Positions 7,748 to 25,720 of a stretch of 64,000 nucleotides of DNA are shown here, piece by piece. The position numbers were made by a program, and so were the translations under genes. This DNA is from an uncultured Alphaproteobacteria bacterium. GTDB lineage: Bacteria; Pseudomonadota; Alphaproteobacteria; HIMB59; GCA-002718135. The first letter of the stretch is position 1; every line of letters starts with the position of its first letter. The stretch lies in contig CACBQR010000002.1 of assembly GCA_902541435.1 (NCBI GenBank), positions 515 to 64,514 on the forward strand. The letters run 5' to 3'. The notes under the pieces are model-generated. The model saw only the letters and a list, made by a program, of their open reading frames with translations. It did no database searches and was not told the DNA's origin.

Positions 7748-7825
7748 TTTATTAATAAATAATAGAAAGAATTTGTTAAAATTTTATTTCAATTACATTA
7801 ACTAAATTTTTTTTTTACAGAAGTA

Positions 7826-8668: not shown

Positions 8669-8742
8669 AAAATTTACTTTAAATTCTTAATTTTATAATG
8701 TTAAACAATTGTTAAAGTACTCGAAAAAGGAGAAATAAAAAA

Positions 8743-8940
8743 TTAATCCCACTCACAATTATTGGTAATTAGCAGGAGGAAATAATACTGTGAGTGGTAA
8801 GAAACATTTAAATTTTATTGTTTACAAATAGATTAATGGAATATTAAATTTTTATAAATTTAATTAATTTTTAACTTCATTAATTCTCAAATAAATTTTT
8901 TAGTTCTTTCAATTTATCAAAAATTGAATCTCTTACTTCT
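8743..8940. repeat. Direct repeat copy 2 (~198 bp); overlaps the genuine 3' end of arsC
   Basis: See copy 1. Contains hairpin 8749-8797 and the last ~20 codons of arsC. Confidence 0.85.
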
Positions 8941-9299
8941 CTAAATTTATCTAATTGGTTTGAATTAAAATGATCTGATGCCGGATCATCAAATGGTATT
9001 GAAAATATCTGAGCTTTGGAATTTAAAACTGGACATACCTCTTCTTTACAAAGCGTAAAAACGGTATTTAATTCATCTCTGAATTTGTTGTCTAAACTTT
9101 CAAAATCTTTTGAATAATGTTTTGATATATCAATATCGATTTCACCCATAACCTCGATAGCATTAGGATTAACTTCTTTGGGCACTGATCCTGCACTTTG
9201 AATAATGCAATTAGGATATAATTTTTTTGCAATTCCTTCAGCCATTTGACTTCTTGCTGAATTAGCAACACACATAAAAAGAATATTTTTATTTTTCAT
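8880..9299 (-). CDS. arsC: arsenate reductase, LMW-PTP (thioredoxin-coupled) type
   Basis: 139 aa. CVANSARSQMAEG is a CX5R(S) P-loop near the N-terminus. Two further Cys lie in LCKEEVCP. Confidence 0.8.
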   Translation of the reverse strand: MKNKNILFMCVANSARSQMAEGIAKKLYPNCIIQSAGSVPKEVNPNAIEVMGEIDIDISKHYSKDFESLDNKFRDELNTVFTLCKEEVCPVLNSKAQIFSIPFDDPASDHFNSNQLDKFREVRDSIFDKLKELKNLFEN

Positions 9300-9523
9300 G
9301 TTAGCAAATAAATATATCCAAAAATAAATAGTGGGAGTTGTAAACCAAAGTTTGTGAGCAGAGCTCTATCTTTTGTCATATAACCAACAATTGACCAACC
9401 AACAGCACCTGTACCGTGAATAATTATGTTAATTGGATACGCATTTAAATTGGTTAATAATATTCCTGATAAAATTAACGCGGTGCTAAACCACTTAATT
9501 CTATTAATTGATAAATCTGTCAT
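9296..9523 (-). CDS. small hydrophobic membrane protein (about 3 predicted TM segments), unknown function
   Basis: 75 aa, three hydrophobic stretches, 4-nt overlap with the arsC start. No recognisable motif. Confidence 0.45.
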   Translation of the reverse strand: MTDLSINRIKWFSTALILSGILLTNLNAYPINIIIHGTGAVGWSIVGYMTKDRALLTNFGLQLPLFIFGYIYLLT

Positions 9524-9579
9524 ATCTTCTCCTAAATTCTATAGATTGCGAATATTACACTTTACTTAAAGATAAAGAT

Positions 9580-9607
9580 ATTAATCAAATTGTAACAAAA
9601 ATTTAAC
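9580..9607 (+). promoter_or_regulatory. Candidate Pho-box-like element (three direct hexamers at 11-bp spacing)
   Basis: ATTAAT(9580) / TGTAAC(9591) / TTTAAC(9602), each followed by an A/T spacer, about 40 nt upstream of the DUF47-PiT start. The architecture resembles 7+4 bp PhoB boxes. Confidence 0.35.
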
Positions 9608-9646
9608 ATTTCTTTCTTTTTTTTTGAAAAGTTCTATAAGCACTCC

Positions 9647-10309
9647 ATGTTTGGATTAAAAAGTGCATCATTATTTGGTGATACCAAAAAGCTTGAAAGA
9701 GAAATTGATGAGTTTGTTGATATTGTCTCTGAAGTGGGCTTAGTATTTAAATCGATAGTTCCAACTTATCTCAATCATTCTGCCAATGGTAAATTTGAGG
9801 AAATGGTTGAAAAAGTAAAAGAAATGGAAAGTAAGGCTGACAAAATTACGAAAGATGTTGAGCATACTCTTTATGAAGAAACACTAATCCCAGATGCAAG
9901 AAGTGATGTGTTACGACTTCTAGAACACATCGACGAATTAATTGGAATGTACCAAGGGAATTGTTATCACTTCTCTATTCAAAAACCTAATTTTCCAAAA
10001 GAGTTTCACCAAGATTTAATTGAGTTAACAGAGACAGTTGTAAACTGTGTTGAGTCACTTTGTTTGACTGTCCGATCATTTTTTAGAGATATTAAATCTG
10101 TTAGAGATAATGCTCATAAAGTAACTTTTTATGAAAAAGAATCTGATATAAAATTTAGTTCTCTTGCAAGAAGAATTTTTGATTCTGAATTACCTCTAGA
10201 TCAAAAAATGCATCTTCGTTATTTTGTAGAGAAGATTGATCGTATTTGTGATCAAGCAGAAGACATAGCTGACGAGGTTCAAATTTACGCTATTAAACGT
10301 TCCGTTTAA
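9647..10309 (+). CDS. DUF47 / TIGR00153-type PhoU-like phosphate-transport regulator
   Basis: 220 aa helical protein directly preceding a PiT transporter, which is the canonical pairing. The C-terminal D.ADE...Y ending is typical of the family. Confidence 0.75.
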   Translation: MFGLKSASLFGDTKKLEREIDEFVDIVSEVGLVFKSIVPTYLNHSANGKFEEMVEKVKEMESKADKITKDVEHTLYEETLIPDARSDVLRLLEHIDELIGMYQGNCYHFSIQKPNFPKEFHQDLIELTETVVNCVESLCLTVRSFFRDIKSVRDNAHKVTFYEKESDIKFSSLARRIFDSELPLDQKMHLRYFVEKIDRICDQAEDIADEVQIYAIKRSV

Positions 10310-10315
10310 TTTTCA

Positions 10316-11368
10316 ATGGAAATTACAATTCTAATTTTTTTATTTGGTGGTCTTTTTTTAGGTTGGTCACTTGGCGCCAATGATGCAGCAAATGTTTTTG
10401 GAACTGCAGTTGGAACACGAATGGTTAGTTTCACAAGTGCAGCAATAATTTGTAGTGTCTTTGTTATTCTAGGTGCAATTATTAGCGGAGCAGGCACAAC
10501 AGAAACTTTAGGTAAGTTAGGTGCTATTAATGCATTGCCTGGTGCTTTTGCAGCATGTGTGGCTGCGGGAATATCTGTATATTTAATGACCAAAGTTGGC
10601 TTGCCTGTTTCAACAACGCAAGCGATTGTTGGAGCAATTGTTGGTTGGAATTTATACACGGGATCTTCAACTAATCTTCAAGTTTTAATTACTATTTTAG
10701 GAACATGGATACTCTGTCCTATTATTGCAGGAGTTATTGCAATGGGTTTATTTACTTTTACAAAAAGAGTTATACTCAATAGAAAGTTACATATTCTCAG
10801 ACTTGATGCCTATACAAGAACAGCTTTACTTTTAGCGGGTACTTTTGGTGCTTATAGTTTAGGTGCAAACAATATTGCCAATGTAATGGGTGTCTTCGTA
10901 CCTATATCACCGTTTACTGATGTTACTATTGGAAATTTATTTGTCTTTTCCTCAAAAGAACAATTATTTCTTCTAGGTGGTTTAGCAATAGCTGTTGGTG
11001 TTTTTACTTACTCGAAAAGAGTTATGTTTACCGTTGGTAATGATCTCTTAAAAATGACACCAGTGGCAGCATTTATTGTTGTTATATCGCATTCTATTGT
11101 TTTATTTTTATTTGCATCCCAGGGTATAAGTGCTTTTTTACAATCTATAAATCTTCCCTCTATACCTTTGGTACCAGTATCAAGTTCCCAAGCTGTTGTC
11201 GGCGGCGTAATTGGAATTGGTCTTTTAAAAGGAGGAAAAGAGGTTCAATGGTCAATTGCAGGTAGAATTTCTTTGGGTTGGATGACGCTACCTATAATTG
11301 CAGCTTTAATTTCTTTAATTGTTTTATTTATTCTAGAAAATATTTTTAATTTAACGGTCTCTTTTTAA
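10316..11368 (+). CDS. pit: inorganic phosphate transporter, PiT family
   Basis: 350 aa polytopic. GANDAANVFGTAVG in the first half and GANNIANVMG in the second half are PiT signature repeats. Confidence 0.9.
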   Translation: MEITILIFLFGGLFLGWSLGANDAANVFGTAVGTRMVSFTSAAIICSVFVILGAIISGAGTTETLGKLGAINALPGAFAACVAAGISVYLMTKVGLPVSTTQAIVGAIVGWNLYTGSSTNLQVLITILGTWILCPIIAGVIAMGLFTFTKRVILNRKLHILRLDAYTRTALLLAGTFGAYSLGANNIANVMGVFVPISPFTDVTIGNLFVFSSKEQLFLLGGLAIAVGVFTYSKRVMFTVGNDLLKMTPVAAFIVVISHSIVLFLFASQGISAFLQSINLPSIPLVPVSSSQAVVGGVIGIGLLKGGKEVQWSIAGRISLGWMTLPIIAALISLIVLFILENIFNLTVSF

Positions 11369-11889
11369 TTAACTGCTCGATAAGAAAAAATAAAATCTTC
11401 TTGGATTTTTGACTCAATAGCTCCTTTTCTTCTTGCTCGCACTAGATCAATAGCTTCTTGTTTTTCATAATTAAATTCAACAAGTAAAATAGCAGCTATA
11501 GTGCCAGCTCTTCCTTTTCCTCCACGGCAATGTAAAACTATGTTTTTACCATCTATCAATTCGTTCTTTAATAAAACTTTTGTTGTTTCCCATTTATATT
11601 TAAAATCTTTATCTGGTGCTCCCATGTCATAAATGGGTAAATGGTACCAATGTAATTTATGTTCATAAATATTTTTGACAAACAAAGTTTTATCACACAA
11701 TTTTTCAAATTCGCTATCTTCAACAAAAGAAGTAATAGAACTACAATTATTATTTTTAAATATTTCTAATTCGTTTGCTAAAATTGTTTCTTCAAATAAA
11801 CCATTAGAGTTAAGACCTGGGAAAGAAGTTAATATAATTTTGCCTGCAAATGACTTAGAGTCAATAAAATCATAATTGCTAAATTGCAT
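11365..11889 (-). CDS. Cys-based (dual-specificity/CDKN3-like) protein phosphatase family protein
   Basis: 174 aa. HCRGGKGRAGT is a CX5R P-loop with an upstream D (YDMGAPD). The start codon directly abuts the stop of the phnZ-like gene (TAAATG on the minus strand). Confidence 0.75.
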   Translation of the reverse strand: MQFSNYDFIDSKSFAGKIILTSFPGLNSNGLFEETILANELEIFKNNNCSSITSFVEDSEFEKLCDKTLFVKNIYEHKLHWYHLPIYDMGAPDKDFKYKWETTKVLLKNELIDGKNIVLHCRGGKGRAGTIAAILLVEFNYEKQEAIDLVRARRKGAIESKIQEDFIFSYRAVN

Positions 11890-12465
11890 TTACGCTTGTT
11901 TAGCTAAAAAAGACTGTCTTGCTTCTTCTAAATAGGGGCGGAAATGTTCAACATCGGGAGTTTTTTTATCTAGAATTTTTGCTAAATCATCAAATCTTCT
12001 AAGCTCTACTGCTTCATCCATAAAAGGTTTGCTTATAAACGCATCTGCTTCTTCTTTTGTGAAAGGACCACCTTGAACTTTTAACGAAAGTTTCGATGCT
12101 TCTGATAGACTATCATAATAACCTTCTTCAACACTTGATAAATATCTTTTTGAGTCAACATGTGCTCTAATTGGTAGAATAACATCCTCACCAAAATATT
12201 TTTTTAAAAAATCAGCACCTAAATTTTCATGATGACCATCTTTCCCTTCATGAATGGGATCGCCGTCCTCATAGATAAGGTGGCCAACATCATGCAGTAA
12301 TGCTGCAGCAATTGTTGGTCCTGGTAATTTATGTTTTTCAGCAAGTTCAGCACATTGGAGTGCGTGCTCAAGCTGGGTCACATCCTCATTACCATATTGA
12401 ATATCAGCACCTTTTGTTTTCAAAAGATGTAAGAGATAGTCTACAATATTTTCTTCCATTTTCAT
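11890..12465 (-). CDS. phnZ: PhnZ-family HD-domain (mixed-valent diiron) oxygenase, phosphonate C-P cleaving type
   Basis: 191 aa. QLEHALQCA, AALLHDVGH, HHENLGADFL, AHVDSKRYL and GGPF match the H...HD...H...H...D ligand pattern and spacing of PhnZ/TmpB-type proteins. Confidence 0.75.
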   Translation of the reverse strand: MKMEENIVDYLLHLLKTKGADIQYGNEDVTQLEHALQCAELAEKHKLPGPTIAAALLHDVGHLIYEDGDPIHEGKDGHHENLGADFLKKYFGEDVILPIRAHVDSKRYLSSVEEGYYDSLSEASKLSLKVQGGPFTKEEADAFISKPFMDEAVELRRFDDLAKILDKKTPDVEHFRPYLEEARQSFLAKQA

Positions 12466-12553
12466 TTATAATTAACTTATTAGAAAATAAATTCAATTCC
12501 AACTTTAATAAGATTGATCAAATTTATAATAATATTTATTAAGTAAATATTTA

Positions 12554-13651
12554 ATGGATAAAAAATTATTAACCCCTGGTCCTCTCACGACATCGATGTC
12601 AACAAAAGAGGCTATGCTTCATGATTGGGGTTCGAGAGATACAAAATTTATTGATCTCAATGCATCAATTAGAGATTCCCTTGTTAAATTAATAGACGGT
12701 GAAGATAAATATCAATGTGTTCCAATGCAGGGAAGTGGAACTTTTGCCGTAGAGTCGATGGTAAGCTCTCTTACTCAAAAAGATTCTAAAATTCTGATTC
12801 TGATCAATGGTGCTTACGGACAAAGAATGAAAAAAATGTGCACATATTTAGGGAGAGATTTTATTGAATATGAAGTTGCTGAACATGAAGTACATGACAT
12901 CAATAAAATTGAAGACTTAATTGATAGCAACAACTTAACACACGTCTTTGCCGTATATTGTGAAACAACATCGGGTATTTTAAATCCTATTGAAGACATT
13001 GCAAAATTGGTTGAGGGGAAAAATTTATCGTTATTCATCGATGCAATGAGTGCCTTTGGTGCATTACCCTTAAGTTCTAAAACAATTACTTTTGATGCTG
13101 TAGCCGCTTCATCAAACAAATGCTTAGAAGGTGTGCCAGGTGTTGGTTTCATTCTTGTTAAAAATGAAGTTATTCAAAATGCAAAAGGCAATAGTCACTC
13201 ACTAAGTCTAGACTTGTATGATCAATGGCAAGCAATGGAAAAAAATAAACAATGGCGATTTACACCTCCAACACACGTATTAGCTGCATTCAACCAAGCT
13301 ATTGAAGAACATAAAGAACAAGGCGGTGTAAAAGGAAGAGGTAAAAGATATAAAAAAAATTGTGAAATTATTTGTAATGGAATGAAAGAGTTGGGATTTG
13401 AGCAACTACTTCCTGATAATTTACAAGCACCAATTATTATTACGTTTAAACAACCTAATGATCCTAAATTTAACTTTGAGAAATTTTATAATGCTCTTAG
13501 TGAAAAAGATTTTTTAATTTATCCAGGAAAACTAACAGTGGCAGAAACTTTTAGAATTGGGTGTATTGGTAATTTAGATGAACAAGACATGATGGATACA
13601 ATAAAAGCTGTAAAAGAAGTCGTTACTGAATTGGGATTAACATTAAACTAA
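12554..13651 (+). CDS. phnW: 2-aminoethylphosphonate--pyruvate transaminase
   Basis: 365 aa. LLTPGPLTTS, YCETTSGILNP, SSNKCLEGVPG (PLP Lys), WRFTPPTH, FRIGCIG. Confidence 0.9.
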   Translation: MDKKLLTPGPLTTSMSTKEAMLHDWGSRDTKFIDLNASIRDSLVKLIDGEDKYQCVPMQGSGTFAVESMVSSLTQKDSKILILINGAYGQRMKKMCTYLGRDFIEYEVAEHEVHDINKIEDLIDSNNLTHVFAVYCETTSGILNPIEDIAKLVEGKNLSLFIDAMSAFGALPLSSKTITFDAVAASSNKCLEGVPGVGFILVKNEVIQNAKGNSHSLSLDLYDQWQAMEKNKQWRFTPPTHVLAAFNQAIEEHKEQGGVKGRGKRYKKNCEIICNGMKELGFEQLLPDNLQAPIIITFKQPNDPKFNFEKFYNALSEKDFLIYPGKLTVAETFRIGCIGNLDEQDMMDTIKAVKEVVTELGLTLN

Positions 13652-13658
13652 CAAAATA

Positions 13659-14291
13659 ATGACAAAAGAAATTGAAATACCATTAGTTAAAGCAACAAAT
13701 GAAAATCTTAAAGGATACGGATATTTAATCGATAGTTTTGAAAATAGTGATATTGAAATTGTTACTTGGCCAAAACAAGGATGGCGCGACATAGAAGAGG
13801 GAACTGGTAATGAAGGTGGAACTACCGAAGGTTCTTTTGATACCTGGTGGCAAGGTGATGTGCTTTATGGACAAAATAATGCTGTCCAACATAAGAGCGA
13901 TTATGAAGTAGATGGAAAATATATACTGGGTTATGCCAATAACCCCGATCAAGAATTGCAAAAAGATAAATATTCAGATCCAACAAAAATATTTCTATGG
14001 CATGCAAATTATCATCCTGATGGAGGTCAGCTTTTTTTTCCTGCAGAAAATAAACCATTTATTTGTCCTTTAGCTTTACCAACAGACGACATCGAACCAG
14101 AACATTTCAAAGCATTTTATTGTGATGGATCAAAAGGTTTGTATATTCATCCAAACATTTGGCATGAAGGGGTGTTTCCAGTTAAAGAAAAACAATCATT
14201 TCATGGAAAACAAGGTAAAGTACATGCAAGAGTTAGCATCGACTTAAAAGAGGAATTTAATAAGTATATTTATTTTAAAACTGCGATCTAA
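13659..14291 (+). CDS. ureidoglycolate lyase (AllA)-like beta-barrel protein, function here unknown
   Basis: 210 aa. N-terminal L..AT.ENLKGYGYLI, NYHPDGGQLFFP and GLYIHPNIWHEGVF parallel AllA blocks (AYG.VI, ERHP...Q.F.P, GVNYH..VWH.P). 7 nt downstream of phnW. Confidence 0.5.
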   Translation: MTKEIEIPLVKATNENLKGYGYLIDSFENSDIEIVTWPKQGWRDIEEGTGNEGGTTEGSFDTWWQGDVLYGQNNAVQHKSDYEVDGKYILGYANNPDQELQKDKYSDPTKIFLWHANYHPDGGQLFFPAENKPFICPLALPTDDIEPEHFKAFYCDGSKGLYIHPNIWHEGVFPVKEKQSFHGKQGKVHARVSIDLKEEFNKYIYFKTAI

Positions 14292-14311
14292 TTATAAATT
14301 TGTATAAAATA

Positions 14312-15100
14312 ATGAAAATTATTCATCTTTCAGACCCTCATATTTATATAGATAAGATTCATGGCATAGATCCTGTCAGTAAATTTAAAAAAGCATTAAG
14401 TCATATAAAAAATAATCATGGTGATGCAGATTTATTTGCCATCACTGGCGATATTACAGACTTAGGTGATAAAGATTCTTATCAGTTATTTATAAAAATC
14501 ATTGATGAAGCAGAGCTGCCAAAGAATTTAAATCCTCAACTCATTATAGGTAATCATGATAACAGAGATGAGTTTAAAATAAACTTTCCTAATATTGAAA
14601 CCGATCCAAATGGCTTTATTCAATACTTTAAGGATATAGATAATAAACGTTTAATTTTTATAGATACTAATCTGATTAATACTCACCAAGGACATTACTG
14701 TGAAGAGAGGCAAGAATGGTTAAATAATATTTTAGGTAAAACTAATACAGATACGTACATCTTTATGCATCATAATCCACTGGCATTAGTAAAAGAGGAA
14801 AGTGATGGAATAGGATTACAACAAAAAAAAGAGTTTCAACAAATTTTAACTAAAAATAATAAGATAATAAAACATATTTTTTTTGGTCATCAACACATTA
14901 CAAGTTCTGGTTCTTATTGTGGTATTACTTTTTCCTCCCCAAGAAGTACTTGGTCTCCTCTAATACCTAACTTTTCAAATGAATATCGTTTAGGAACGGC
15001 TAATACAGATACAAATTATAATGTTGCAATAATTCGATCTGACGCCTTAATTATTCATACAGAGGATTTTTTAAAAACAGAAGTTAATTGGTTTAAATAA
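14312..15100 (+). CDS. GpdQ/CpdA-like metallophosphoesterase (phosphodiesterase)
   Basis: Motifs HLSDPH, GDITDLG, GNHDN, FMHH and GHQH appear in GpdQ-like order. The ATG at 14312 is preferred over the TTG at 14300 reported by the ORF track. Confidence 0.75.
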   Translation: MKIIHLSDPHIYIDKIHGIDPVSKFKKALSHIKNNHGDADLFAITGDITDLGDKDSYQLFIKIIDEAELPKNLNPQLIIGNHDNRDEFKINFPNIETDPNGFIQYFKDIDNKRLIFIDTNLINTHQGHYCEERQEWLNNILGKTNTDTYIFMHHNPLALVKEESDGIGLQQKKEFQQILTKNNKIIKHIFFGHQHITSSGSYCGITFSSPRSTWSPLIPNFSNEYRLGTANTDTNYNVAIIRSDALIIHTEDFLKTEVNWFK

Positions 15101-15104
15101 AAAA

Positions 15105-16211
15105 TTATTTTTTTTCAATTACAAATATTTCATTGTTAAAATAAAGGCCTTTATTTTTAGCAACAATATTTTGAACTACTTTTTCGTAATTTTTTGTTTT
15201 TTCTACCTTCATTACTTTATCATCATCCATTTGATTGACATATATGGAGGCATTCCAAGCAGAAAAAACTAATGATGTCGCTATACCTCCACTGATTTCT
15301 GTTGGTAGAGCTCTCAATTTATATTTAATAATTTTTTTTTCTCCAAAAGATAAATTACTTAATAAATCTTTATCTAAATTTTTCTTAAGATAAGAAATGA
15401 TACTATTTCCAAGAGAAGGAAAAGGGTCCTCTTTTGGCCAAATTTTACGAATTATTTCATTAGCAGGATCTTTTCCTGAAGCATGAATAGTTAATAATTT
15501 CCCTTTTGATTTTAACGCTCGAATCATTGGTTCGATGACATATTTTGATTTCTTTTCTGCTGAAATTCTTGAACGATAAGGCTGTGAAGCAATAATAAGA
15601 TCAAATTTATTATCTGATTTTTTTTTGGTTGGTATTAATTCATTAACATTAAATTCTTGATCTTCACGGTAAATAACCATGACTGAAGGCTCCTTATAAG
15701 TATGGTTACCTGACTTTTTATTAATTTCTATATTCCATTTTTTTTCTAAAAATTCATTTTGTTTTCTTAATTGTTGGGCAAATTCAAGAGAGGTGTCACC
15801 TTTTAATTTAATAATATTCCAATTAATTTTTTTCTGTTTAACGTCATTTTTTGATTTTAGGTTTGCGGCTTCAGCGTAGTGTAAATTTGAAATTACAAAA
15901 ACAGTATTCTTATGCTCAACAAACCTATCGGGTAATTTTTCCAAACCTAATCTTACATCTTCAATACTTATTTCTTTTGTGCAAACTAATAGAGGTACGT
16001 TAGGCCTGGCCTCGTGGCACTGACGCATAACATTCATAAGTAAGGAACCATCACCCATACCAGCATCAAATATTTTTATACCAGGTTTTTGCGGTTTAAT
16101 TTTATTTACGTGAGGGCGTATCGCATCAGCAATTTGATTTTTTTCATTTGTTGTTGTGACAAATAATAAGTATTTTTGTCTGTTATCATAAAACCTGAAA
16201 TTTTTTTTCAT
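15105..16211 (-). CDS. class-I SAM-methyltransferase-like protein, unknown substrate
   Basis: 368 aa. IFDAGMGDGS looks like motif I and IIASQPY resembles an (N/D/S)PPY-like motif IV. Otherwise not recognisable. Confidence 0.45.
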   Translation of the reverse strand: MKKNFRFYDNRQKYLLFVTTTNEKNQIADAIRPHVNKIKPQKPGIKIFDAGMGDGSLLMNVMRQCHEARPNVPLLVCTKEISIEDVRLGLEKLPDRFVEHKNTVFVISNLHYAEAANLKSKNDVKQKKINWNIIKLKGDTSLEFAQQLRKQNEFLEKKWNIEINKKSGNHTYKEPSVMVIYREDQEFNVNELIPTKKKSDNKFDLIIASQPYRSRISAEKKSKYVIEPMIRALKSKGKLLTIHASGKDPANEIIRKIWPKEDPFPSLGNSIISYLKKNLDKDLLSNLSFGEKKIIKYKLRALPTEISGGIATSLVFSAWNASIYVNQMDDDKVMKVEKTKNYEKVVQNIVAKNKGLYFNNEIFVIEKK

Positions 16212-16213
16212 TA

Positions 16214-17326
16214 CTAATAAAGTCCCATTGATTTAGCAGAAGAGATGAAGGCTTCTTTATTGCCAATAAAGTTTTTACCTCGTTCTCCTAAAAACGCATC
16301 ATCTACTATATTATTCCATTCTTGAACAGGAACTTTTATTTCATTTAAGTTAAGAGGAACCTCTAAAGAACGCATAAATTCACTCAGATGATTTGCGGCA
16401 TTCTCTAGGTTATCGTTAAAAATTAGTTTTAGTCTTTCTTCAGCTACACTATCAATTCCAACCATACTTTTAGTAATCATGGGTAATGTAAATGAGCAAG
16501 CAATACCATGTTGAATGCCGTAATTGAGCGTCACAGGGTATGATAGATTGTGCGCAATAGCAGTTTTTGTATTGGAAAACGCTAAGCCAGCATGAACGCA
16601 TGCCAGTGCAATGTTTGAACGTAATTCAACGCTTCTTAAATCTTTAGCGAGAAGTGGTAAATTTTCTAATACTAATTTTGATGCTTGTATTGCATGAGAA
16701 GCAGAAATTGGGTTTGCATTAATATTCCAAATACTTTCCATTGAATGAGAGAGAGCATCTAAACCTGTTGAAATGGTCAAGCCTAAAGGCTTATCAACCA
16801 TAATTGATGGATCGATAATTGCTTTTTCTGCATAAAGAGATTTATGCGCCAAAGATAATTTATTGTTTTTTTCTTTATCCCAAATTGTGGCCCAACACGT
16901 AAGCTCACTTGATGTTCCTGAAGTTGTAGGTATTGCAATAATCTTGATTGGATTTTCGACTCTTGGACTTTTCTTATTGCGAACGAAATCTGTTAGATAT
17001 TCTTGTTTATCTTTAAAAGCAGCAATTGCTTTAGCTGTGTCTGTAACAGAGCCACCACCTATAGCTAAAATATAATCTACCGATTCATTGATTGAAGAAA
17101 ATTTTTTTTGTAGCTCTAAAATATCCTTATAATCTGGATTAGGTTGAACATCCGTCATAATGGATAGTGGTGGATTTGAAGAAGATTTTAATTCATCGCT
17201 ATATTTTTTAAAAATTTCTTCTGGATGAGTGATTATGATGTAGTTCTTATTTTTAAGAGCATCATGTACTTCTTTAAATCTATTTTCTCCAAAGATAATT
17301 TCAACAGGATTAAAATAATTCCACAT
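16214..17326 (-). CDS. iron-containing (group III) alcohol dehydrogenase
   Basis: 370 aa. AIGGGSVTDTAK is the GGGS NAD(P) loop. Metal-binding His blocks are DALSHSMES, AHNLSYP and HGIAC. Confidence 0.85.
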   Translation of the reverse strand: MWNYFNPVEIIFGENRFKEVHDALKNKNYIIITHPEEIFKKYSDELKSSSNPPLSIMTDVQPNPDYKDILELQKKFSSINESVDYILAIGGGSVTDTAKAIAAFKDKQEYLTDFVRNKKSPRVENPIKIIAIPTTSGTSSELTCWATIWDKEKNNKLSLAHKSLYAEKAIIDPSIMVDKPLGLTISTGLDALSHSMESIWNINANPISASHAIQASKLVLENLPLLAKDLRSVELRSNIALACVHAGLAFSNTKTAIAHNLSYPVTLNYGIQHGIACSFTLPMITKSMVGIDSVAEERLKLIFNDNLENAANHLSEFMRSLEVPLNLNEIKVPVQEWNNIVDDAFLGERGKNFIGNKEAFISSAKSMGLY

Positions 17327-17330
17327 TACA

Positions 17331-18410
17331 TTAAATTGATTTTGCCGCTTTAGTTAAAATTGTCATTTTCTCAATTGCTTGTTCTCGAGTAAAGAAACCT
17401 AAACCACAATCTGGTGCAGCTATTAAGCGGTGTTCATCAATATGTTCAAGTGAATCTTTGATACGAACTCTTACTTCTTCAACAGATTCCATTCTGCTTT
17501 TTGCAATATCAATAAATCCAAAAATTACTTTTGTTTTAGTAAATTTTTCTAAAAGATTTAAATCATTATGCCTATGTGAATCTTCTAAAGATACTTCATC
17601 AATAGTTGAATCATCTACAAGTGATGCAATTCTATCATAAGCATCTAAATCAGCCTTTTTATAACCTTCTGAATCTAATGAATTAGGATAACCACAACAA
17701 ATATGGCAAACACGTTGCACTTCTTTAGGTATACCATGCATCATTCTTTCTAAATTTTCCATACCATATGAATGAGCTTCATCAGGCTTTCTAGCAAATA
17801 CTGGTTCATCAATTTGAATATACTGACAACCTGCATTTACAAGTGCTTTAACTTCTTTATTAAGGGCTAATGCTAAATCAAAACCAAGTTTTTTCATGTC
17901 ATCATAGTAGTTGTTAGCAATTGAATCTGTTATTGTCATTGGTCCAGGTAGGGTAATTTTAACTGGATTTTTTGTAAATTGTTGTGCACTCTTCCAGTCT
18001 AGATGCATACGTATTTCTTTACTTGAAATCGGTGCAACAATAGTTGGAAGATCAGCTTCGAACGCGCCTTGTCTTACTGACTTATGTGTAACTTCTTTAA
18101 AACTTACTCCATTTAAAAATCGACATTGATATAATACGTAACTCTCACGTCTGACTTCTCCATCTGTTGGAACATCAATACCCGCATTTACTTGATCAGT
18201 TATAACTTCTTTAATTGCTGCTAAAAATAATTTTTCAGCATCTGCACCTGCAGACTCTAATGCTTTTTCATATGCGCCAGGTGACCAATTTGATAATAAT
18301 CCTTTTGACGCTTTTCTCTCTTCTTCTGATTTTGTCCCTAAAAACCAATCTTGAATAGGTGTTTGTTTCGGTTTTGGATAAGCACCTATTGTAGTTGTTT
18401 TAAGAGGCAT
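17331..18410 (-). CDS. short cobalamin-independent methionine-synthase-like (MetE C-terminal domain) Zn-dependent methyltransferase
   Basis: 359 aa. N-terminal TTTIGAYPKP. Zn-ligand motifs HICCGYP and APDCGLGF. Confidence 0.75.
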   Translation of the reverse strand: MPLKTTTIGAYPKPKQTPIQDWFLGTKSEEERKASKGLLSNWSPGAYEKALESAGADAEKLFLAAIKEVITDQVNAGIDVPTDGEVRRESYVLYQCRFLNGVSFKEVTHKSVRQGAFEADLPTIVAPISSKEIRMHLDWKSAQQFTKNPVKITLPGPMTITDSIANNYYDDMKKLGFDLALALNKEVKALVNAGCQYIQIDEPVFARKPDEAHSYGMENLERMMHGIPKEVQRVCHICCGYPNSLDSEGYKKADLDAYDRIASLVDDSTIDEVSLEDSHRHNDLNLLEKFTKTKVIFGFIDIAKSRMESVEEVRVRIKDSLEHIDEHRLIAAPDCGLGFFTREQAIEKMTILTKAAKSI

Positions 18411-18442: not shown

Positions 18443-18467
18443 ACAGCGGCTTTTATAAAGCCGCTGT
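18443..18467 (-). terminator. Rho-independent terminator downstream of the SBP gene
   Basis: ACAGCGGC-loop-GCCGCTGT (8-bp GC-rich stem), followed on the minus strand by TTTTATTTT. Confidence 0.7.
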
Positions 18468-18497: not shown

Positions 18498-19751
18498 TTA
18501 CATAAGATCGTTTATTTCTTCCATCATTTCTTCTTGGAGATCACCCATATCATCAGCGTCGCCTGTAGCAATTTCTTCTGTGTAATCATAGATTACCTGC
18601 GTAACAGCTAATCCATTTTCTCCAGGATATGCAAACCAATCTGCAAGAAGTGGAAGTTGTTCAACTGCAGTAAGTTTATTAGGGTTTTTACTATAGAAAT
18701 CACCTAATAATTCATTCGCTGCTTTGTTTGGTGGAACATATCCAGTTGTTTCAGCAACTAATGCAGCACCGATACCTGATGTAATGAACTTTAAGAAAGT
18801 CCATGCAGCATCAACTCTTGCTGGATCATCAGATGTAGACACTAACATTGCAGCGTTTCCACCTGCTGGTAATCTTGCAGGTGTTCCATTGTTAACTCCA
18901 GCCATTCCAGGGAATGGTGCAGTCTTTAAAACAAAGTCTGCCTTTGCAGCATTAACTGAACCCAAGCTTGAAGTAGACCAGAACATCATACCAATTGTAC
19001 CTGCGTTAAACGCAGCTTGACCATCAGCAATTGAATAGTTTGGCATATTACATCCGCTCATGATTGCTTTCATTTGCTCTAACGTTGCAAGTCCTGCATC
19101 ACCACCCATATTTACAGCCCCATCTTTAACCATTGGAACATTCTGAGTGTGCATTAATGCTTGGTGGAACCAGTTACCTGTGATGTTCCAACCAAAGTAT
19201 AGAGTTCCTTTACCTGCTGCTTCCAATTTATTACATGCTGCAATAACTTCGTCCCAGTTAGTTGGAATACTATTTACACCTGCTTCAGCTAATAAATCCA
19301 TGTTATAATATCCAACTGGCGTTGATACAGAAAATGGTAATCCATAAACTTCACCACCAAATGTTGAAAGACTTAACATAGCAGAATGGTAACCATCTTT
19401 TTCAAAAGCAGCTTCTTTTGCAATAAATGGCTCTAAAGACTTAGCAATACCTTTGTCAACTAGAGGTGCTTGTCTGTTAAGACCTTGCATTGTTACATCT
19501 GGTAAATTACCTGAAGTAGACTCTCTGAAGATTGTTGCAGTTGCATCCTCATAGTTTTCATAAGTTGCTCTAAATTTAACTTGAATATCTGGATGTGCTT
19601 TTTCAAACTCTGGCATAATAGCTTGGAAAGTTACATCGAATAATCCTGAATAAGGATAAGCAACTTCTATTTCAATAGACTTAGCTGAATTAACAGAACC
19701 ATAAAAACCAAAAGCTAATACGGCTGCAAATCCTGTAATTAATTTTTTCAT
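18498..19751 (-). CDS. ABC transporter substrate-binding protein, family 1 (UgpB/CUT1-like); ligand unknown
   Basis: 417 aa with an N-terminal signal peptide (MKKLITGFAAVLAFGFYGSVNSA). Family-1 SBP architecture, noticeably higher GC than its surroundings, own terminator. Confidence 0.8.
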   Translation of the reverse strand: MKKLITGFAAVLAFGFYGSVNSAKSIEIEVAYPYSGLFDVTFQAIMPEFEKAHPDIQVKFRATYENYEDATATIFRESTSGNLPDVTMQGLNRQAPLVDKGIAKSLEPFIAKEAAFEKDGYHSAMLSLSTFGGEVYGLPFSVSTPVGYYNMDLLAEAGVNSIPTNWDEVIAACNKLEAAGKGTLYFGWNITGNWFHQALMHTQNVPMVKDGAVNMGGDAGLATLEQMKAIMSGCNMPNYSIADGQAAFNAGTIGMMFWSTSSLGSVNAAKADFVLKTAPFPGMAGVNNGTPARLPAGGNAAMLVSTSDDPARVDAAWTFLKFITSGIGAALVAETTGYVPPNKAANELLGDFYSKNPNKLTAVEQLPLLADWFAYPGENGLAVTQVIYDYTEEIATGDADDMGDLQEEMMEEINDLM

Positions 19752-19887: not shown

Positions 19888-21330
19888 TTACCAAGGTAGC
19901 GAAAAGGTTTTTACATTAGTAAAACTTTTCATTGCTTCAATAACACCCTCTTTGTAACCAAGACCTGAATCTTTAATTCCTCCAAAAGGAGACATTTCAA
20001 TTCTATAACCTGGAACCTCCCAAATATTTACCGTACCAACATTTAAACCTTGAATATATTTTTTTGCTCGCATGAAGTTATTTGTACATACACCAGATGA
20101 TAATCCGAATGCGGTTGAATTAGATATTTTCATTACAGCTTCATCGTCATTAGGCACACGAATGATTGGGATAACTGGACCAAATGTTTCTTCTAAAACT
20201 AATTCACTTTTAGGATCAACATGATCTACAACTATTGGAGGTAACAAAGCACCCTTTCTTCCAGGGTGATATAAAATTTTTGCGCCGTCTTCTTCAGCCA
20301 TAGAAACTCTTTTATCAAAAAGTTCTGCAGCTTGAGCATTAACAACTGTACCTAAGTCTGTTTCCATATTCATAGGATCACCAAATTTAATTTTCTTTGC
20401 ACGCTCAAGAGCCATTTCAACAAATTGATCTGCAATGGATTCTTGAACCAATATTCTTTTAACAGCTGTACAACGTTGACCAGAATTTTTCGTTGCTCCC
20501 GTAACAGCTAGTTCAACAGCTTTTTTAAGATCATCACCATCTAAGTCATTTAAAACAATTAATGGATCATTACCACCTAACTCAAGAACAGTTCTTTTGT
20601 ATCCAGCTTGTTCAGCAATTAATTTTCCTACACCCACACTGCCTGTAAAAGTAATTAGATCAATGTTTGGATTTTTGATCATTTCTGATCCAATGTCTTG
20701 AGGCCATCCAGTTACAACTGAAAACATTTCGGGTGGCAGGCCTGCTTCATATAAAACATCGGCGAGTACCATTGCTGTTAAAGGTGTTAATTCTGTTTGT
20801 TTACATACAGTACAATTATTAGTTGCAATTGAAGGTGCAATTTTATGCGCTACCATATTCAAAGGATGATTAAATGGGGTGATTGCTGAGATTGCCGTTA
20901 AAGGTTCTCTTATGGTAAATATTTTTCTGGCTTTTCCATGTGGAGTTAAATCACAAGAAAATATTTCTCCATCATCATGAATACAAAGTTGAGCCGTTAA
21001 TGAAAATACATCGAAAGCTCTTCCTACTTCGTATAAAGAATCTTGTTTTGAGATACCAAGTTCTAAAGTAATAATATCAGAAATTTCTTCTTTTCTTTTA
21101 ACAAGTACTTCTGCAGCAGTTTGAAGAATTTTTTGTCTCTCATATCTTGTAAGTTTAGGCTGATAATTTGCAGCTATATCTAAAGCCTTTCTTGCATGCT
21201 CTGCGGTACCGGCTGGAACCGTTCCGATTACTTCACCTGTAAAAGGGTACTCAACATTTATTGTTTTATCTGAAGTAACTTTTTCTCCAGCAATACGCAT
21301 TGCTTCATTAATCATTTTTTTGTGCATCAT
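19888..21330 (-). CDS. phnY: phosphonoacetaldehyde dehydrogenase (aldehyde dehydrogenase family)
   Basis: 480 aa ALDH. ELGGNDP and GQRCTA (catalytic Cys) are present. 4-nt overlap with phnA upstream. Specific function is inferred from context. Confidence 0.75.
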
Positions 21331-22568
21331 AGGGCTCCATTTATTGCATAATAAAATGCATCATAGTTATATAATTGTTTGCTAGTATCTAAGTTTTGTA
21401 ATTTTAAATTTGATATGAATGGCACTTCTCTTTCATGGAGTCCTCCATGAGAACGTAAAGGTTCATTTAATCCAGAAAGATTGTGTTTATCTTCCGATGA
21501 ACCAATAGTCATAAATTCTGAAGACATACATATAATATCTCCCATTCTATCAGGAGGTAAATTGTAAGTAGAGCATCCTTCATCTTTTGTTAAAACAACT
21601 TCTATATCTTTTATTTCTTTAATAGCATTTACAACTGAATCTACCTTGCTCTTGTCTTCTAAATAAATTGTTGCAAAAGAACCAAGTGAACCATGATGAA
21701 CAACATATGGATCTGTAATTGGTAGGATGACTTTAGCCATGTTTGGTTCAAATTTTTTATCTAAATAATCTTGTAAAAATATTGCATTAGGTGAACCATC
21801 TTCTTTTGATTTTGGTTTCATTCCGTGATCTGCTGTGATGATTATAGAAACATTCTCATTATTTAAAAGACCAATATATTTATCAAACATTGCATAAAAT
21901 TTATTTGCTGTTTCATTTCCCGGTGCATATTTGTGTTGAATATAATCCGTAGTCGATAAATACATAATATTTGGTTTAAACTCTTCAAGAAGTTTTACAC
22001 CTGCAGCCATCACAAATTCAGAGAGTCCTTCAGAATATACTTCTGGCACTGGCATCCCCAACCAATCGTTTACATTATCTATACCATTGAGATCTTTTGT
22101 TGCTTGATCAGATTTTTCAGCAGAAAAACAAATAGCTCTCTCATCATCAAAACTTAATCCGTTTCCTAAAAGTGTTCTCAACTTGTCTTTTGCAGTAACA
22201 AGAGCAATTTTAGAACCAGAATTGTAAAATTTTTCAAAAATAGTTGGTGCTCGCATATATTTTGGGTCATTCATCATAACTTCTTCACCAGTCTCAGGTG
22301 TATAAAAGAAGTTTCCGCATATACCGTGTACAGAACTTGGTTGGCCTGTTACAATCGAAATGTTATTTGGATTTGTAAAACTTGGAATAGCGCTGTGAAC
22401 AAGTAGGTTTTCACCACTTGCAATTAATTTATCAAGATTTGGTGTAAGATTAGATTTTGATGCTTCTTCGAGATACTCTTTTTGACTACCATCAAGGCAT
22501 ATAACAATAGCAGTTTTTGAGAAAGAGTTTGGATATTCTCTTTTATTAATTTCTAAATTATCGGACAC
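21327..22568 (-). CDS. phnA: phosphonoacetate hydrolase (alkaline-phosphatase superfamily)
   Basis: 413 aa, GTG start. [42 protein letters not shown]. Confidence 0.85.
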
Positions 22569-22744: not shown

Positions 22745-23878
22745 GTGGGGACAATATCACTTAAAAATATTTCAAAGTCATTTGGGTCTACACAAGTACT
22801 TAATAATTTGAATGTTGATATAAACGATGGAGAATTCTTAACGTTAGTTGGTCCATCTGGTTGTGGTAAATCTACATTACTTAGAATAATTGCAGGATTG
22901 GAACAGCAGACTTCAGGTGATGTATTAATAGATAATAAAAATGTAAATAGAGTTAGAGCCAGTGAAAGAGATTTGGCAATGGTCTTCCAATCATATGCTC
23001 TTTATCCTCATCTCACAGTAAGAAGAAATTTAGAAACTCCATTAAGACTCAGGGATTATAATGCATTTGAAAGACTGCCCTTGATTGGTAATTTTTCTCC
23101 AAGCAAAAAAGAGAAAACAGAATCTATAAATCAATTAGTAAATAAAACTTCTGAAACTCTAAAAATTTCAGAACTATTGGATAGAAAACCAGGACAATTG
23201 TCAGGTGGTCAAAGACAAAGAGTTGCTCTTGGTCGTGCTATGGTTAGAGAGCCTGTTGCCTTTTTAATGGATGAGCCTCTTTCAAATTTAGATGCAGCTT
23301 TGAGAGTTCACATGCGATCTGAACTATCTGAACTTCATAATTCACTTAAAACTACTTTTGTGTACGTAACACATGATCAAGCAGAAGCGTTAACTATGTC
23401 TTCTAGAATGGCAGTTATGATTGATGGAAATTTATTACAACTAGATACACCTCAAGAAGTATATGATAATCCTTCCTCATTAAGTGTAGCTCAGTTTGTT
23501 GGAAGTCCAAAAATAAATATATTTAAAGGAACTTCGGACTCAAGTGGGACAGTAAGTTTTCTCAACGTTAATTTAAAAAGAAAAAGTTCTGAAAGTAATA
23601 CAGATTTACATATTGGTATTCGACCAGAACATTTAGAAATTACAAATGAAAGTAATGAAAATACATTTAGTGGAACAGTTGCATATAGAGAAAATTTAGG
23701 TTCAGATATTTTCTTTCATGTAAATATTGAAGACGGTTCAAATAAAATAATTGTAAGGGGCTTACCACAATTTACTCACCAAATTTCAAACGGTTCAAGT
23801 GTAAATATAAAAAGAGTTTCAGATAAAGCATTACTATTTAATCAAGCAGGAATGAGGGTTCAATTTACTAATGCATAA
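22745..23878 (+). CDS. ABC transporter ATP-binding protein, UgpC/MalK type
   Basis: 377 aa, GTG start after a GGGGGA RBS. GPSGCGKST, LSGGQRQR, FLMDEP, plus a C-terminal TOBE-like extension. Confidence 0.9.
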   Translation: MGTISLKNISKSFGSTQVLNNLNVDINDGEFLTLVGPSGCGKSTLLRIIAGLEQQTSGDVLIDNKNVNRVRASERDLAMVFQSYALYPHLTVRRNLETPLRLRDYNAFERLPLIGNFSPSKKEKTESINQLVNKTSETLKISELLDRKPGQLSGGQRQRVALGRAMVREPVAFLMDEPLSNLDAALRVHMRSELSELHNSLKTTFVYVTHDQAEALTMSSRMAVMIDGNLLQLDTPQEVYDNPSSLSVAQFVGSPKINIFKGTSDSSGTVSFLNVNLKRKSSESNTDLHIGIRPEHLEITNESNENTFSGTVAYRENLGSDIFFHVNIEDGSNKIIVRGLPQFTHQISNGSSVNIKRVSDKALLFNQAGMRVQFTNA

Positions 23879-24827
23879 TTCAAAAGCTCACATATGGTTT
23901 ATTGCTCCAGCAATCATACTGATGATAATTATTTTAATTTTTCCTCTTTTTCTTGCAGGAGGAATTTCTTTTACTGACTATAATTTGGGAAACAAAACAT
24001 TCGAGTGGGTTGGACTAGAAAATTATGACAAGATGTTCAATCGAAAAACATATGTCAAAATGATTTGGGCCACAGCGACGTATGTTATTATTGTCGTTCC
24101 AATTTCTGTTGTACTTGGATTATGTGCTGCAATGCTCTTAAATTCACTAAGGTTTGGCGCTGATATATATAAAACAATTTTCTTTCTTCCAGTTATGGCA
24201 ACTCTTCTTGCAATGGCAATTGCATGGGAATTTACTCTTCATCCAACATTAGGAATTGTAAATAGTTTTTTAGCAAATGGGTGTGGAGGAGTTAGGGAAT
24301 TCATTCTTGGTTTTCATTGGTTGCCGTGGGTAGACTCACAAGAAAGCTGGTATGCTGTAGCATGTGCAAACAACATGGATTTTCCATATTGGTTAAAACA
24401 AAAAAATACAGCGATTTGGACAGTATGTTTCATCGGAATTTGGCAGGCTTTTGGTTTTAACATGGTTTTATATTTAGCTGGCTTAACAAGTATACCAAGA
24501 GAGTTATACCAAGCAGCAGAAATGGATGGGGCTAAATCTACATGGGAACAATTTAAACTTGTTACATGGCCAATGCTTGGTCCAACAACGTTGTTTGTTG
24601 TGACTATTACTACCATTAGAACATTTCAGGTATTTGATACAATCGAAATACTGACCAAAGGTGGTCCATCAAAAACAACGTATGTCATGATGTATGCAAT
24701 TTTTGAAAAAGCTATTCAACAAAACTTAACAAGTATCGGTGCAGCAATCACTGTTGTCTTTATTGGATTTATTCTTGTGTTAACGTTTTTCCAAAGATAT
24801 GTCATTGAGAAGAGGGTTCATTATTAA
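23871..24827 (+). CDS. ABC transporter permease, UgpA/MalF-like
   Basis: 318 aa, 6 TM, EAA-type loop AAEMDGAKSTWEQFKLVTWP. Confidence 0.85.
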   Translation: MHNSKAHIWFIAPAIILMIIILIFPLFLAGGISFTDYNLGNKTFEWVGLENYDKMFNRKTYVKMIWATATYVIIVVPISVVLGLCAAMLLNSLRFGADIYKTIFFLPVMATLLAMAIAWEFTLHPTLGIVNSFLANGCGGVREFILGFHWLPWVDSQESWYAVACANNMDFPYWLKQKNTAIWTVCFIGIWQAFGFNMVLYLAGLTSIPRELYQAAEMDGAKSTWEQFKLVTWPMLGPTTLFVVTITTIRTFQVFDTIEILTKGGPSKTTYVMMYAIFEKAIQQNLTSIGAAITVVFIGFILVLTFFQRYVIEKRVHY

Positions 24828-25720
24828 TGGAAGCTAAACAATATATTGGGGAAGGTTGGAAGCATGCAATCTTAATAATTGGTGCTATCGTAGTAATGCT
24901 CCCTTTTTATATGATGGTTTCAATGTCATTAAAATCTCAGCAAGAAATCCAATCAATTTCTGGTGGTCTCATTGGTGCGCAAGAAACTCAAACGTTTCCC
25001 GTATGTGTTAAAACTGGCTATTCAGAAGAAACATGTACAATGAAGCCATATCAATACAACTATTGGTTTGCTTTTGAAAAAGCTCCTATTCCTAGATACT
25101 TAATGAATGGTGTCATTGTTACTTTATCAATCTTCATCATTCAGGTTTTAGTCGCCTTACCATGTGCGTATGCACTCGCAAAGTTACGGTTTTACGGACG
25201 AGAATTTGTTTTCTCGATGGTTTTATTTTGCTTGCTCATTCCAGTTCACGGAATTGCGCTTCCATTATATGTTATGTTGGCTCAGGCAGGATTAGTTGAC
25301 ACCTATTCCGCCTTGATACTTCCCTGGACTATATCGGTGTTTGGAATTTTTTTAATGCGACAATTTTTTATGACTGTGCCCGATGAATTAATTGACGCCG
25401 CCAGGATGGATGGAATGGGAGAGTATGCTATAGTCTGGAAAGTAATGCTTCCAACTGCAATACCAGCATTACTTGCTTTTGCAATATTCTCAGTTGTTGC
25501 ACACTGGAATGATTATTTCTGGCCTCGTATGGTAATAACAGGAAATAGAGATCTCTTTACTCCACCACTTGGTATCAGAGAATTCAGAGGTGGAATTGAT
25601 AGTGACGAATTTGGTCCAATGATGGCTTCGATAGTTACTGTAACTGTTCCTCTTATTGTTGCTTTTATAATCGCGCAAAAACGATTTATTGAAGGAATTA
25701 CTTTGACAGGCATGAAGTAA
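24827..25720 (+). CDS. ABC transporter permease, UgpE/MalG-like
   Basis: 297 aa, EAA loop AARMDGMGEYAIVWKVMLP. Confidence 0.85.
   Translation: MEAKQYIGEGWKHAILIIGAIVVMLPFYMMVSMSLKSQQEIQSISGGLIGAQETQTFPVCVKTGYSEETCTMKPYQYNYWFAFEKAPIPRYLMNGVIVTLSIFIIQVLVALPCAYALAKLRFYGREFVFSMVLFCLLIPVHGIALPLYVMLAQAGLVDTYSALILPWTISVFGIFLMRQFFMTVPDELIDAARMDGMGEYAIVWKVMLPTAIPALLAFAIFSVVAHWNDYFWPRMVITGNRDLFTPPLGIREFRGGIDSDEFGPMMASIVTVTVPLIVAFIIAQKRFIEGITLTGMK

Follow-up and report, generated by a model that had tools for sequence, protein, structure and literature searches.

We analyzed three adjacent minus-strand genes in a 64,000-nucleotide stretch of DNA (hereafter the window) from a marine alphaproteobacterium of the order HIMB59. 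The window is AT-rich, with a GC content of approximately 31%. The genes encode a MetE-like protein (MetEL), an iron-dependent alcohol dehydrogenase (Fe-ADH, here also ADH) and a protein resembling a methyltransferase (MTL), and they lie close to the phosphonoacetate-route genes phnA and phnY. Our main result is that the three genes are inherited separately and do not form one cassette. In the explanation that we favor, and to which we give an even chance of being correct, the trio is a mosaic: three functions joined a phnA-phnY operon independently of one another in a streamlined marine alphaproteobacterium. All three are genuine genes and not chance open reading frames, because each has thousands of homologs and many genomes share the arrangement. 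They are located as follows:

17331..18410, minus strand: MetEL, a 359-amino-acid protein resembling core-MetE-type zinc homocysteine methyltransferases (PF01717, without Meth_synt_1)
16214..17326, minus strand: Fe-ADH of the PhpC/TIGR03405 type, 370 amino acids, a candidate 2-hydroxyethylphosphonate (2-HEP) dehydrogenase (PF00465 and PF25137)
15105..16211, minus strand: MTL, 368 amino acids, with the predicted fold of class-I S-adenosylmethionine (SAM) methyltransferases; 3' gene of the phnA-phnY operon

The proteins of the window were mapped onto 23 loci of the order's genomes and onto 80 loci from a scan of genome collections, and presence or absence was scored in 151 genomes of the order, 69 of which belong to the window's genus. 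Three architectures were observed in the genus: phnA-phnY-MTL (8 loci), phnA-phnY-ADH-MTL (5 loci) and phnA-phnY-SBP-MetEL-ADH-MTL (17 loci), where SBP is a solute-binding protein. Gene spacing was constant across the architectures. The ADH gene was located directly after phnY wherever the SBP-MetEL pair was absent, and among the mapped loci of the order it was found only inside the phnA-phnY operon. Every MetEL-bearing locus of the order kept the adjacency of MetEL and ADH, and at the SBP-MetEL loci the ATP-binding cassette (ABC) ATPase and permease genes were present beyond phnA in every case where the contig reaches that far. We conclude that the constant block in the genus is phnA-phnY-MTL with ADH as an optional insert, and that MetEL occurs within the genus only together with a UgpB/sugar-type ABC importer. 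An earlier interpretation of this DNA, the sequence-only reading, had proposed that the trio could be a single (de)methylation/oxidation branch. Given the separate inheritance of the three genes, this was not borne out in the form proposed.

PhnA and MTL were each detected in 63 of the 69 genomes of the genus. Within the genus, 46 genomes, among them that of the window, carried MetEL of the island type (69–100% identity), as did 26 genomes of the sister family and one genome of another genus. All of the genomes with island MetEL were PhnA-positive except one, whose contig ends before PhnA. The complete sister-family genome G002 contains phnA-phnY and lacks both MTL and MetEL. MTL and PhnA are missing together from four members of the genus; this was considered as evidence and set aside as uninformative, because adjacent genes drop out together in assembly gaps.

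A separate observation concerns genome G149 of genus g5 (C1:92754-98015), in which PhnA and MetEL were 92% and 96% identical to the window's proteins, as compared to 81% for PhnA of its congeners. Since these identities are far above that of the congeners' PhnA, they suggest that the cassette recently moved laterally from one genus to another.

The other features of the locus are:

18443..18467, minus strand: terminator/attenuator-like hairpin between the SBP gene and MetEL (11-bp stem with 6 GC pairs, and a T-run)
18498..19751, minus strand: periplasmic SBP of the UgpB/sugar (CUT1) type (PF13416/PF01547)
19888..21330, minus strand: PhnY, phosphonoacetaldehyde dehydrogenase (TIGR03250, 798.7 bits, above the cutoff of 635)
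21327..22568, minus strand: PhnA, phosphonoacetate hydrolase (TIGR02335, 468.6 bits, above the cutoff of 407)
22745..25720, plus strand: ABC ATPase and two permeases, the importer that co-occurs with SBP and MetEL (PF00005/TOBE_2 and two BPD_transp_1)
14300..15100, plus strand: GpdQ/SpdA-like metallophosphoesterase (NF050112, 174.5 bits, below the cutoff)

The positions of the three open reading frames agreed exactly with those given in the sequence-only reading, with intergenic gaps of 4 nucleotides (nt) between MetEL and ADH and 2 nt between ADH and MTL. Its placement of the trio behind the SBP gene and a terminator was likewise confirmed: the strong hairpin with its T-run, read at 18467-18443, lies 3' of the SBP gene and ends 33 nt before the start of MetEL. 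The ABC ATPase and permease genes are located past phnA on the opposite strand. Beyond the MTL end of the trio follow the metallophosphoesterase gene, an AllA-like gene, phnW and a PhnZ-like gene; the first of these is convergent with MTL, and 4 nt separate the two stop codons. The best PDB matches of the SBP were glycerol-3-phosphate- (G3P-) and sugar-binding proteins, at no more than 68 bits, and the SBP falls outside the PF13343 type of AepX/AepS/PhnS (type as in PMC8316502).

Judged from its profile matches, the ADH is a PhpC/TIGR03405-type Fe-ADH. The Pfam domains Fe-ADH (PF00465, 2.4e-36) and ADH_Fe_C (PF25137, 3e-32) were identified, and the nucleotide motif and metal ligands are present in the translation (GGGSVTD, the D/H of GLDALSH and the H...H of HNLSYPVTLNYGIQHG), in agreement with the group-III fold assigned earlier. 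The NCBIfam model TIGR03405 ("Phn_Fe-ADH/PsrA") matched end to end at 362.4 bits, and the next family reached 159 bits. Aligned over its full length, the ADH shares 46% identity with a TIGR03405 protein (421 bits) that is encoded next to a PhnD-type importer in another bacterium. The solved 1,3-propanediol, butanol and lactaldehyde enzymes scored no more than 105 bits, so that a grouping with the 1,3-propanediol or butanol dehydrogenases, which would have counted against a phosphonate role, was not observed.

Fe-ADHs of the PhpC type that occur in degradative clusters with phnY-phnA or phnX oxidize 2-HEP to phosphonoacetaldehyde, and the mean identity within this class is only 39% (Piazza et al. 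2026, PMC13576164). That study mentions no MetE-like or methyltransferase partner, and the phnA/phnY block is not described in the paper on HIMB59 islands (PMC10734472). The window's ADH shares with the published dehydrogenases the fold, the family, the best-scoring hidden Markov model by a wide margin and the location in a phnY-phnA cluster. It differs from them in its score, which lies below the curated cutoff, and in that its activity is a prediction; moreover, most of the ADH clusters found here add phnW, an importer of another type, and MetE-like and methyltransferase-like genes, and the published study names none of these. The earlier suggestion that the ADH oxidizes 2-HEP and feeds PhnY is thus supported by the TIGR03405-type homology, the phnA-phnY operon and the published activity of the class, and from family membership and context we infer that the enzyme is an NAD-dependent 2-HEP dehydrogenase.

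MetEL was confirmed as a MetE catalytic-domain-only protein with intact zinc ligands. Its only Pfam domain is Meth_synt_2 (PF01717, 4.5e-35), corresponding to the catalytic barrel alone. The zinc ligands H236, C238, E276 and C335 and the homocysteine-amino ligands E85 and D201 were kept in 115–116 of 116 MetEL relatives. The best NCBIfam methionine-synthase model scored approximately 195 bits, and all of these models scored well below their cutoffs. A Ser to Ala replacement at the homocysteine-carboxylate position (GAYP, as compared to GSFP in MetE) was tried as a sign of a different acceptor and rejected, as the family contains 87 Ala and 26 Ser at this position.

The nearest solved relative of MetEL is MesD (3RPD), a core methionine synthase that requires MesX and oxygen, at 153.6 bits. 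Assignment to MesD calls for approximately 390 bits or 55% identity to a characterized MesD, and for an adjacent or co-occurring MesX (Price et al. 2021, PMC7857596). The comparison with the MesD family, which the sequence-only reading had suggested, therefore came out negative. No match to MesX (DUF1852, PF08908) was obtained in the window's genome, which is 75% complete, and 14 control genomes gave none either, so that this search had no positive control; no MesX-type gene was found among the neighbors of MetEL. By these scores and neighbors MetEL is not MesD. The two proteins have in common that they consist of the Meth_synt_2 barrel without the folate-binding N-domain and that the zinc and homocysteine-amino ligands are conserved, but MetEL is coupled to an ABC importer instead of MesX. 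Canonical MetE differs from MetEL by its N-terminal folate-binding Meth_synt_1 domain.

Homocysteine S-methyltransferases of family PF02574 (BHMT/MmuM type) use betaine or sulfonium donors. MetEL probably resembles them in activating the homocysteine thiolate with zinc and in taking the methyl group from a small non-folate donor, and a PF02574 gene fills the equivalent place in one island variant, although the fold family is unrelated to that of MetEL. In this variant, observed in L002 (11318-19248) and L038 (G067), the PF02574 homocysteine methyltransferase follows MTL in the stead of MetEL, and the island carries a different SBP/ABC importer and a GDPD glycerophosphodiesterase.

A MetE-like paralog of MetEL (approximately 50% identity) is near-core in the family. 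In the window's own genome it is located on contig C8 of G000 at 13770-14819 (region 7772-14819), directly after a 511-amino-acid PehA-like phosphonate-monoester/phosphodiester hydrolase (NF045661, 410 bits, below the cutoff), and an SBP_bac_5-type ABC importer also precedes it there. The hydrolase was rejected as an obligatory partner of the paralog, being present only in the own genome and, again together with an ABC importer, at 3 of 8 other loci (two genera). The fixed neighbors of the paralog are genes for Ald (alanine dehydrogenase) and an AptA-type aminotransferase.

Methionine synthesis was examined in five genomes of the order (G000, G001, G007, G003 and G002), four of which are 92–99% complete. 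Neither the MetH activation domain (PF02965) nor, above the cutoff, the MetE N-domain (PF08267) was detected in these five genomes, while control genomes responded. Homocysteine methyltransferases of family PF02574 were present in one to five copies per genome. With no MetH or canonical MetE detected, the lineage seems to rely on methyl donors other than folates for its methionine, which makes donor-specific paralogs plausible.

Genome collections yielded MetEL only rarely outside the order: of 400 genomes in a phylum-wide sample, a single one had a match of even 50% identity. Because of this low yield, metagenome contigs were used, and the contexts described here come from the contigs behind protein matches and from one metagenome scan. 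About 50 of the 80 metagenome loci belong to a more distant MetE-like clade (48–55% identity) and lack the reference neighbors; the contexts taken from the scan are those of the remaining loci. The gene order ABC-permease-permease-SBP-MetEL was observed in at least 13 contigs of several GC classes (L138, L139, L151-L155, L157 and L159-L163), with a convergent version in L149.

Alcohol dehydrogenases of two unrelated classes were located near MetEL in contigs from outside the order. The zinc-dependent enzymes (Zn-ADHs) in L151 and L152 matched best to TIGR03366, at 300 and 287 bits, as compared to 135 and 121 bits for threonine dehydrogenase. The name of the TIGR03366 model is "phosphonate catabolism associated alcohol dehydrogenase", and the score pattern is the signature that would be expected for PbfG. 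Relatives of these Zn-ADHs with 68–70% identity were found in L154 and L166, and a TIGR03405 Fe-ADH was located near MetEL in L137. The recurrence beside MetEL of two unrelated candidate HEP-dehydrogenase classes, one with iron and one with zinc, is the best argument that MetEL may be functionally connected with the use of HEP-type phosphonates. GpdQ/SpdA-like metallophosphoesterases were found near MetEL or the importer in L149, L150, L160 and L163, a sulfatase/PehA-like gene near MetEL in L152, PhnA/PhnY in L161 and L166, and MetK in L166. The aldehyde dehydrogenase after MetEL in L136 was rejected as PhnY, having only 30% identity. Since MetEL is recurrently linked to the importer and to HEP-dehydrogenase-type genes in other lineages, a methyl-handling step tied to imported organophosphorus compounds is plausible.

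A further methyl-metabolism neighborhood surrounds MetEL in L149 (7067-8680 and 15976-17925). There, the gene is divergent from that of a BCCT (betaine/choline/carnitine) transporter and is also near genes for a URO-D/B12-binding fusion protein and MTHFR.

For MTL, no sequence match was obtained in Pfam, NCBIfam or PDB, and Methyltransf_31 was sub-threshold only. The protein was modeled confidently with AF2 (pLDDT 83, pTM 0.85). A Foldseek search with the model returned 244 PDB matches at E<=0.001, and 50 of 50 among the matches listed were SAM-dependent methyltransferases. The top match was histamine N-methyltransferase (E 1e-11), followed by other small-molecule methyltransferases, and the model suggests that MTL uses SAM. 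The resemblance to histamine N-methyltransferase and small-molecule class-I methyltransferases comprises a predicted Rossmann-type core, a GxGxG motif I, an acidic residue after strand 2 and a substrate lid. However, the identity to histamine N-methyltransferase is 13% and the TM-score 0.50–0.63; in contrast to the small-molecule enzymes, MTL also has a family-specific N-terminal block, FRFYDNRQKYL, and a family-specific ASQxxRxR motif, and its long forms add an Xre-type helix-turn-helix (HTH) domain.

The motifs HICCGYP and APDCGLG in MetEL and FDAGMGDGS and SQPY in MTL, to which the sequence-only reading had pointed, are all present in the translations. The assignment of a SAM-methyltransferase motif I to MTL stood, as the fold model supports it and both FDAGxGDG and the acidic post-I residue E80 are invariant. 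The likening of SQPY to the (D/N/S)PP(Y/F) motif IV of amino-methyltransferases did not stand, because this segment varies, reading SQAF in sister-family proteins and SQPW in long ones. Only the pattern A-S-Q-x-x-R-x-R is invariant.

The wider contexts of MTL are those of the methionine/SAM cycle. In most of the sampled Pelagibacteraceae, MTL follows a metY-like gene and an alpha/beta hydrolase gene. In Gammaproteobacteria and in a metagenome-assembled genome (MAG) of Rhodospirillales, it is the first gene of MTHFR-like-MetK-PfkB-AhcY-FTHFS clusters, which a MetE-like gene accompanies. In the sister family, MTL overlaps an M24/creatinase-like gene a few genes from metK-ahcY, and in some loci it is divergent from a BHMT-like gene. 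Occurrence in genomes free of phosphonate genes and beside methionine genes, which the earlier interpretation had named as evidence against its proposal, was thus found in part and for MTL alone, which in many genomes has methionine/SAM-cycle neighbors and no phosphonate neighbors. No SAM or S-adenosylhomocysteine riboswitch was matched in Rfam, even at E<=1, in the metY-abhydrolase-MTL operon, the metK operons or the window.

The protein overlapping the 3' end of the sister-family MTL gene (L047:10060-11346, L053:10120-11406) has Creatinase_N and Peptidase_M24 domains. A protein with the same two domains adjoins an MTL homolog in a Haliangium MAG (L132), and another is located near MetEL in L152 (16022-17161).

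In a maximum-likelihood tree, all MTL copies of the window's genus formed one clade (100/94), all of them in phnA-phnY context, with a Pelagibacteraceae clade as its sister (97/98). The phosphonate cassette of the sister family, when present, is inserted beside that family's very divergent MTL. In a marine lineage with 37–38% GC (L157, L162), a long-form MTL immediately precedes the importer-MetEL operon. Its identity is 41% to the window's MTL and 64–66% to the gammaproteobacterial ones that head operons. Because divergent MTL subfamilies also adjoin the cassette, we conclude that MTL is not simply unrelated to the island.

The long-form MTLs comprise approximately 470–480 amino acids where the start is clear (L157:390-1832, L126:1716-2822 plus upstream sequence, L118:7563-9113 and L132:3418-4824). 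They have a conserved N-terminal block of about 55 amino acids that is missing from the window's MTL. This block was modeled at pLDDT 91 as a four-helix HTH of the Xre/HipB type (TM 0.58–0.66, probabilities <=0.99, E-values 0.2–3). The long forms head methyl-cycle operons or the importer-MetEL operon and, given the modeled HTH block, may be autoregulators or SAM sensors.

In the mosaic explanation, the ADH would be an NAD-dependent enzyme of the PhpC type that oxidizes 2-HEP and so supplies PhnY with phosphonoacetaldehyde; downstream of PhnY, PhnA would then release phosphate. MetEL would be a zinc-dependent homocysteine S-methyltransferase with a non-folate methyl donor, genetically bound to the UgpB/sugar-type importer. 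We infer that this donor is derived from the cargo; it would most likely be the imported organophosphorus compound or its product, the methyl groups being captured as methionine. MTL would be a SAM-dependent small-molecule methyltransferase or a SAM-binding protein of the methionine/SAM cycle, and MTL and MetEL together would be a methyl-cycle add-on rather than a phosphonate-specific enzyme. Several observations weigh against this explanation. No candidate methyl donor emerged from the analysis, and the solved relatives of the SBP, all of low similarity, bind G3P or sugars. MetEL occurs without the importer in L136, L137, L150 and L164-166. It could simply be a second methionine synthase, because the paralog of approximately 50% identity is near-core and has variable neighbors. 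MTL and the cassette could be adjacent because they share a hot spot for insertions. The 362.4 bits of the ADH are below the curated TIGR03405 cutoff of 423.7, and PsrA, the named prototype of this model, has no phosphonate link. Finally, the sampled genomes are related, and the counts represent a pattern and not independent trials.

It is possible, if rather unlikely, that MetEL and MTL are ordinary methionine/SAM-cycle genes without a chemical tie to the imported compound. On this view, MetEL would be an additional isozyme of methionine synthase and MTL would serve as a housekeeping methyltransferase or regulator; the two would owe their place in the island only to a recombination hot spot or to the convenience of phosphate-stress co-regulation. 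This would agree with the near-core paralog and with the finding that Pelagibacteraceae, further genera of the family and Gammaproteobacteria have MTL in the absence of phosphonate genes. In the sister family, moreover, MTL-M24 and metK-ahcY flank the cassette, which is an indel there, and genomes that lack PhnA also carry MTL; a lineage without MetH and MetE would in any case need such enzymes. However, island MetEL was never seen without PhnA within the order, several lineages elsewhere also have it behind the same importer, with dehydrogenases and esterases of phosphonate type close by, and three different MTL subfamilies adjoin the cassette. A bolder proposal, which we consider unlikely, is that the importer-MetEL pair is a new methionine-synthase system of bacteria without folate-dependent methionine synthases, in which the zinc enzyme draws methyl groups straight from an organophosphorus compound brought in by the importer, with the MTL family as the dedicated SAM-using enzyme or SAM-sensing regulator. 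An N-methylated aminoethylphosphonate (AEP), a choline-type phosphoester or a phosphonate methyl ester can be imagined as donors.

A single linear pathway for one imported substrate, in which, for example, a methylated 2-HEP or AEP derivative is demethylated by MetEL, oxidized by the ADH and passed to PhnY and PhnA, with MTL acting on the same scaffold, is improbable in our judgment. The ADH occurs without MetEL and MTL without either, G002 has phnA-phnY without MTL or MetEL, the wider MTL contexts do not involve phosphonates, and we know of no natural methylated HEP derivative. These observations are set against gaps of 4 and 2 nt that fit translational coupling, the unbroken MetEL-ADH adjacency in the order and the presence of MetEL beside both unrelated classes of candidate HEP dehydrogenases. 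We are similarly doubtful that the ADH oxidizes some other alcohol (for example of the choline, glycerol or sugar type) that a neighboring phosphoesterase frees from an imported ester. Phosphodiesterase genes (metallophosphoesterase, GDPD) do accompany the island, and a weak similarity to the choline dehydrogenase GbsB was detected (122 bits); the sub-cutoff TIGR03405 score and the lack of a phosphonate link for PsrA, the namesake of the model, point in the same direction. Yet no other Fe-ADH family comes within 200 bits of TIGR03405, the ADH gene directly follows phnY where the SBP-MetEL pair is absent, and the locus matches a published cluster type of phpC plus phnY-phnA (PMC13576164).

The mosaic explanation bears on marine phosphonate mineralization and on the supply of methionine without MetH or MetE. 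Cells of the HIMB59 and SAR11 types dominate phosphate-poor surface oceans. The part played by the ADH is explained by published work, and the HEP-catabolic route would be extended to a very abundant marine lineage. The MetEL/importer pair and the MTL family each have thousands of environmental homologs. Once identified, the ligand of the importer and the methyl donor would define a new donor class of methionine synthases, and could also reveal methylated organophosphorus compounds that are exchanged in seawater. If true, methyl donation from imported organophosphorus compounds would tie the scavenging of phosphonates in the sea to the metabolism of one-carbon units and sulfur.

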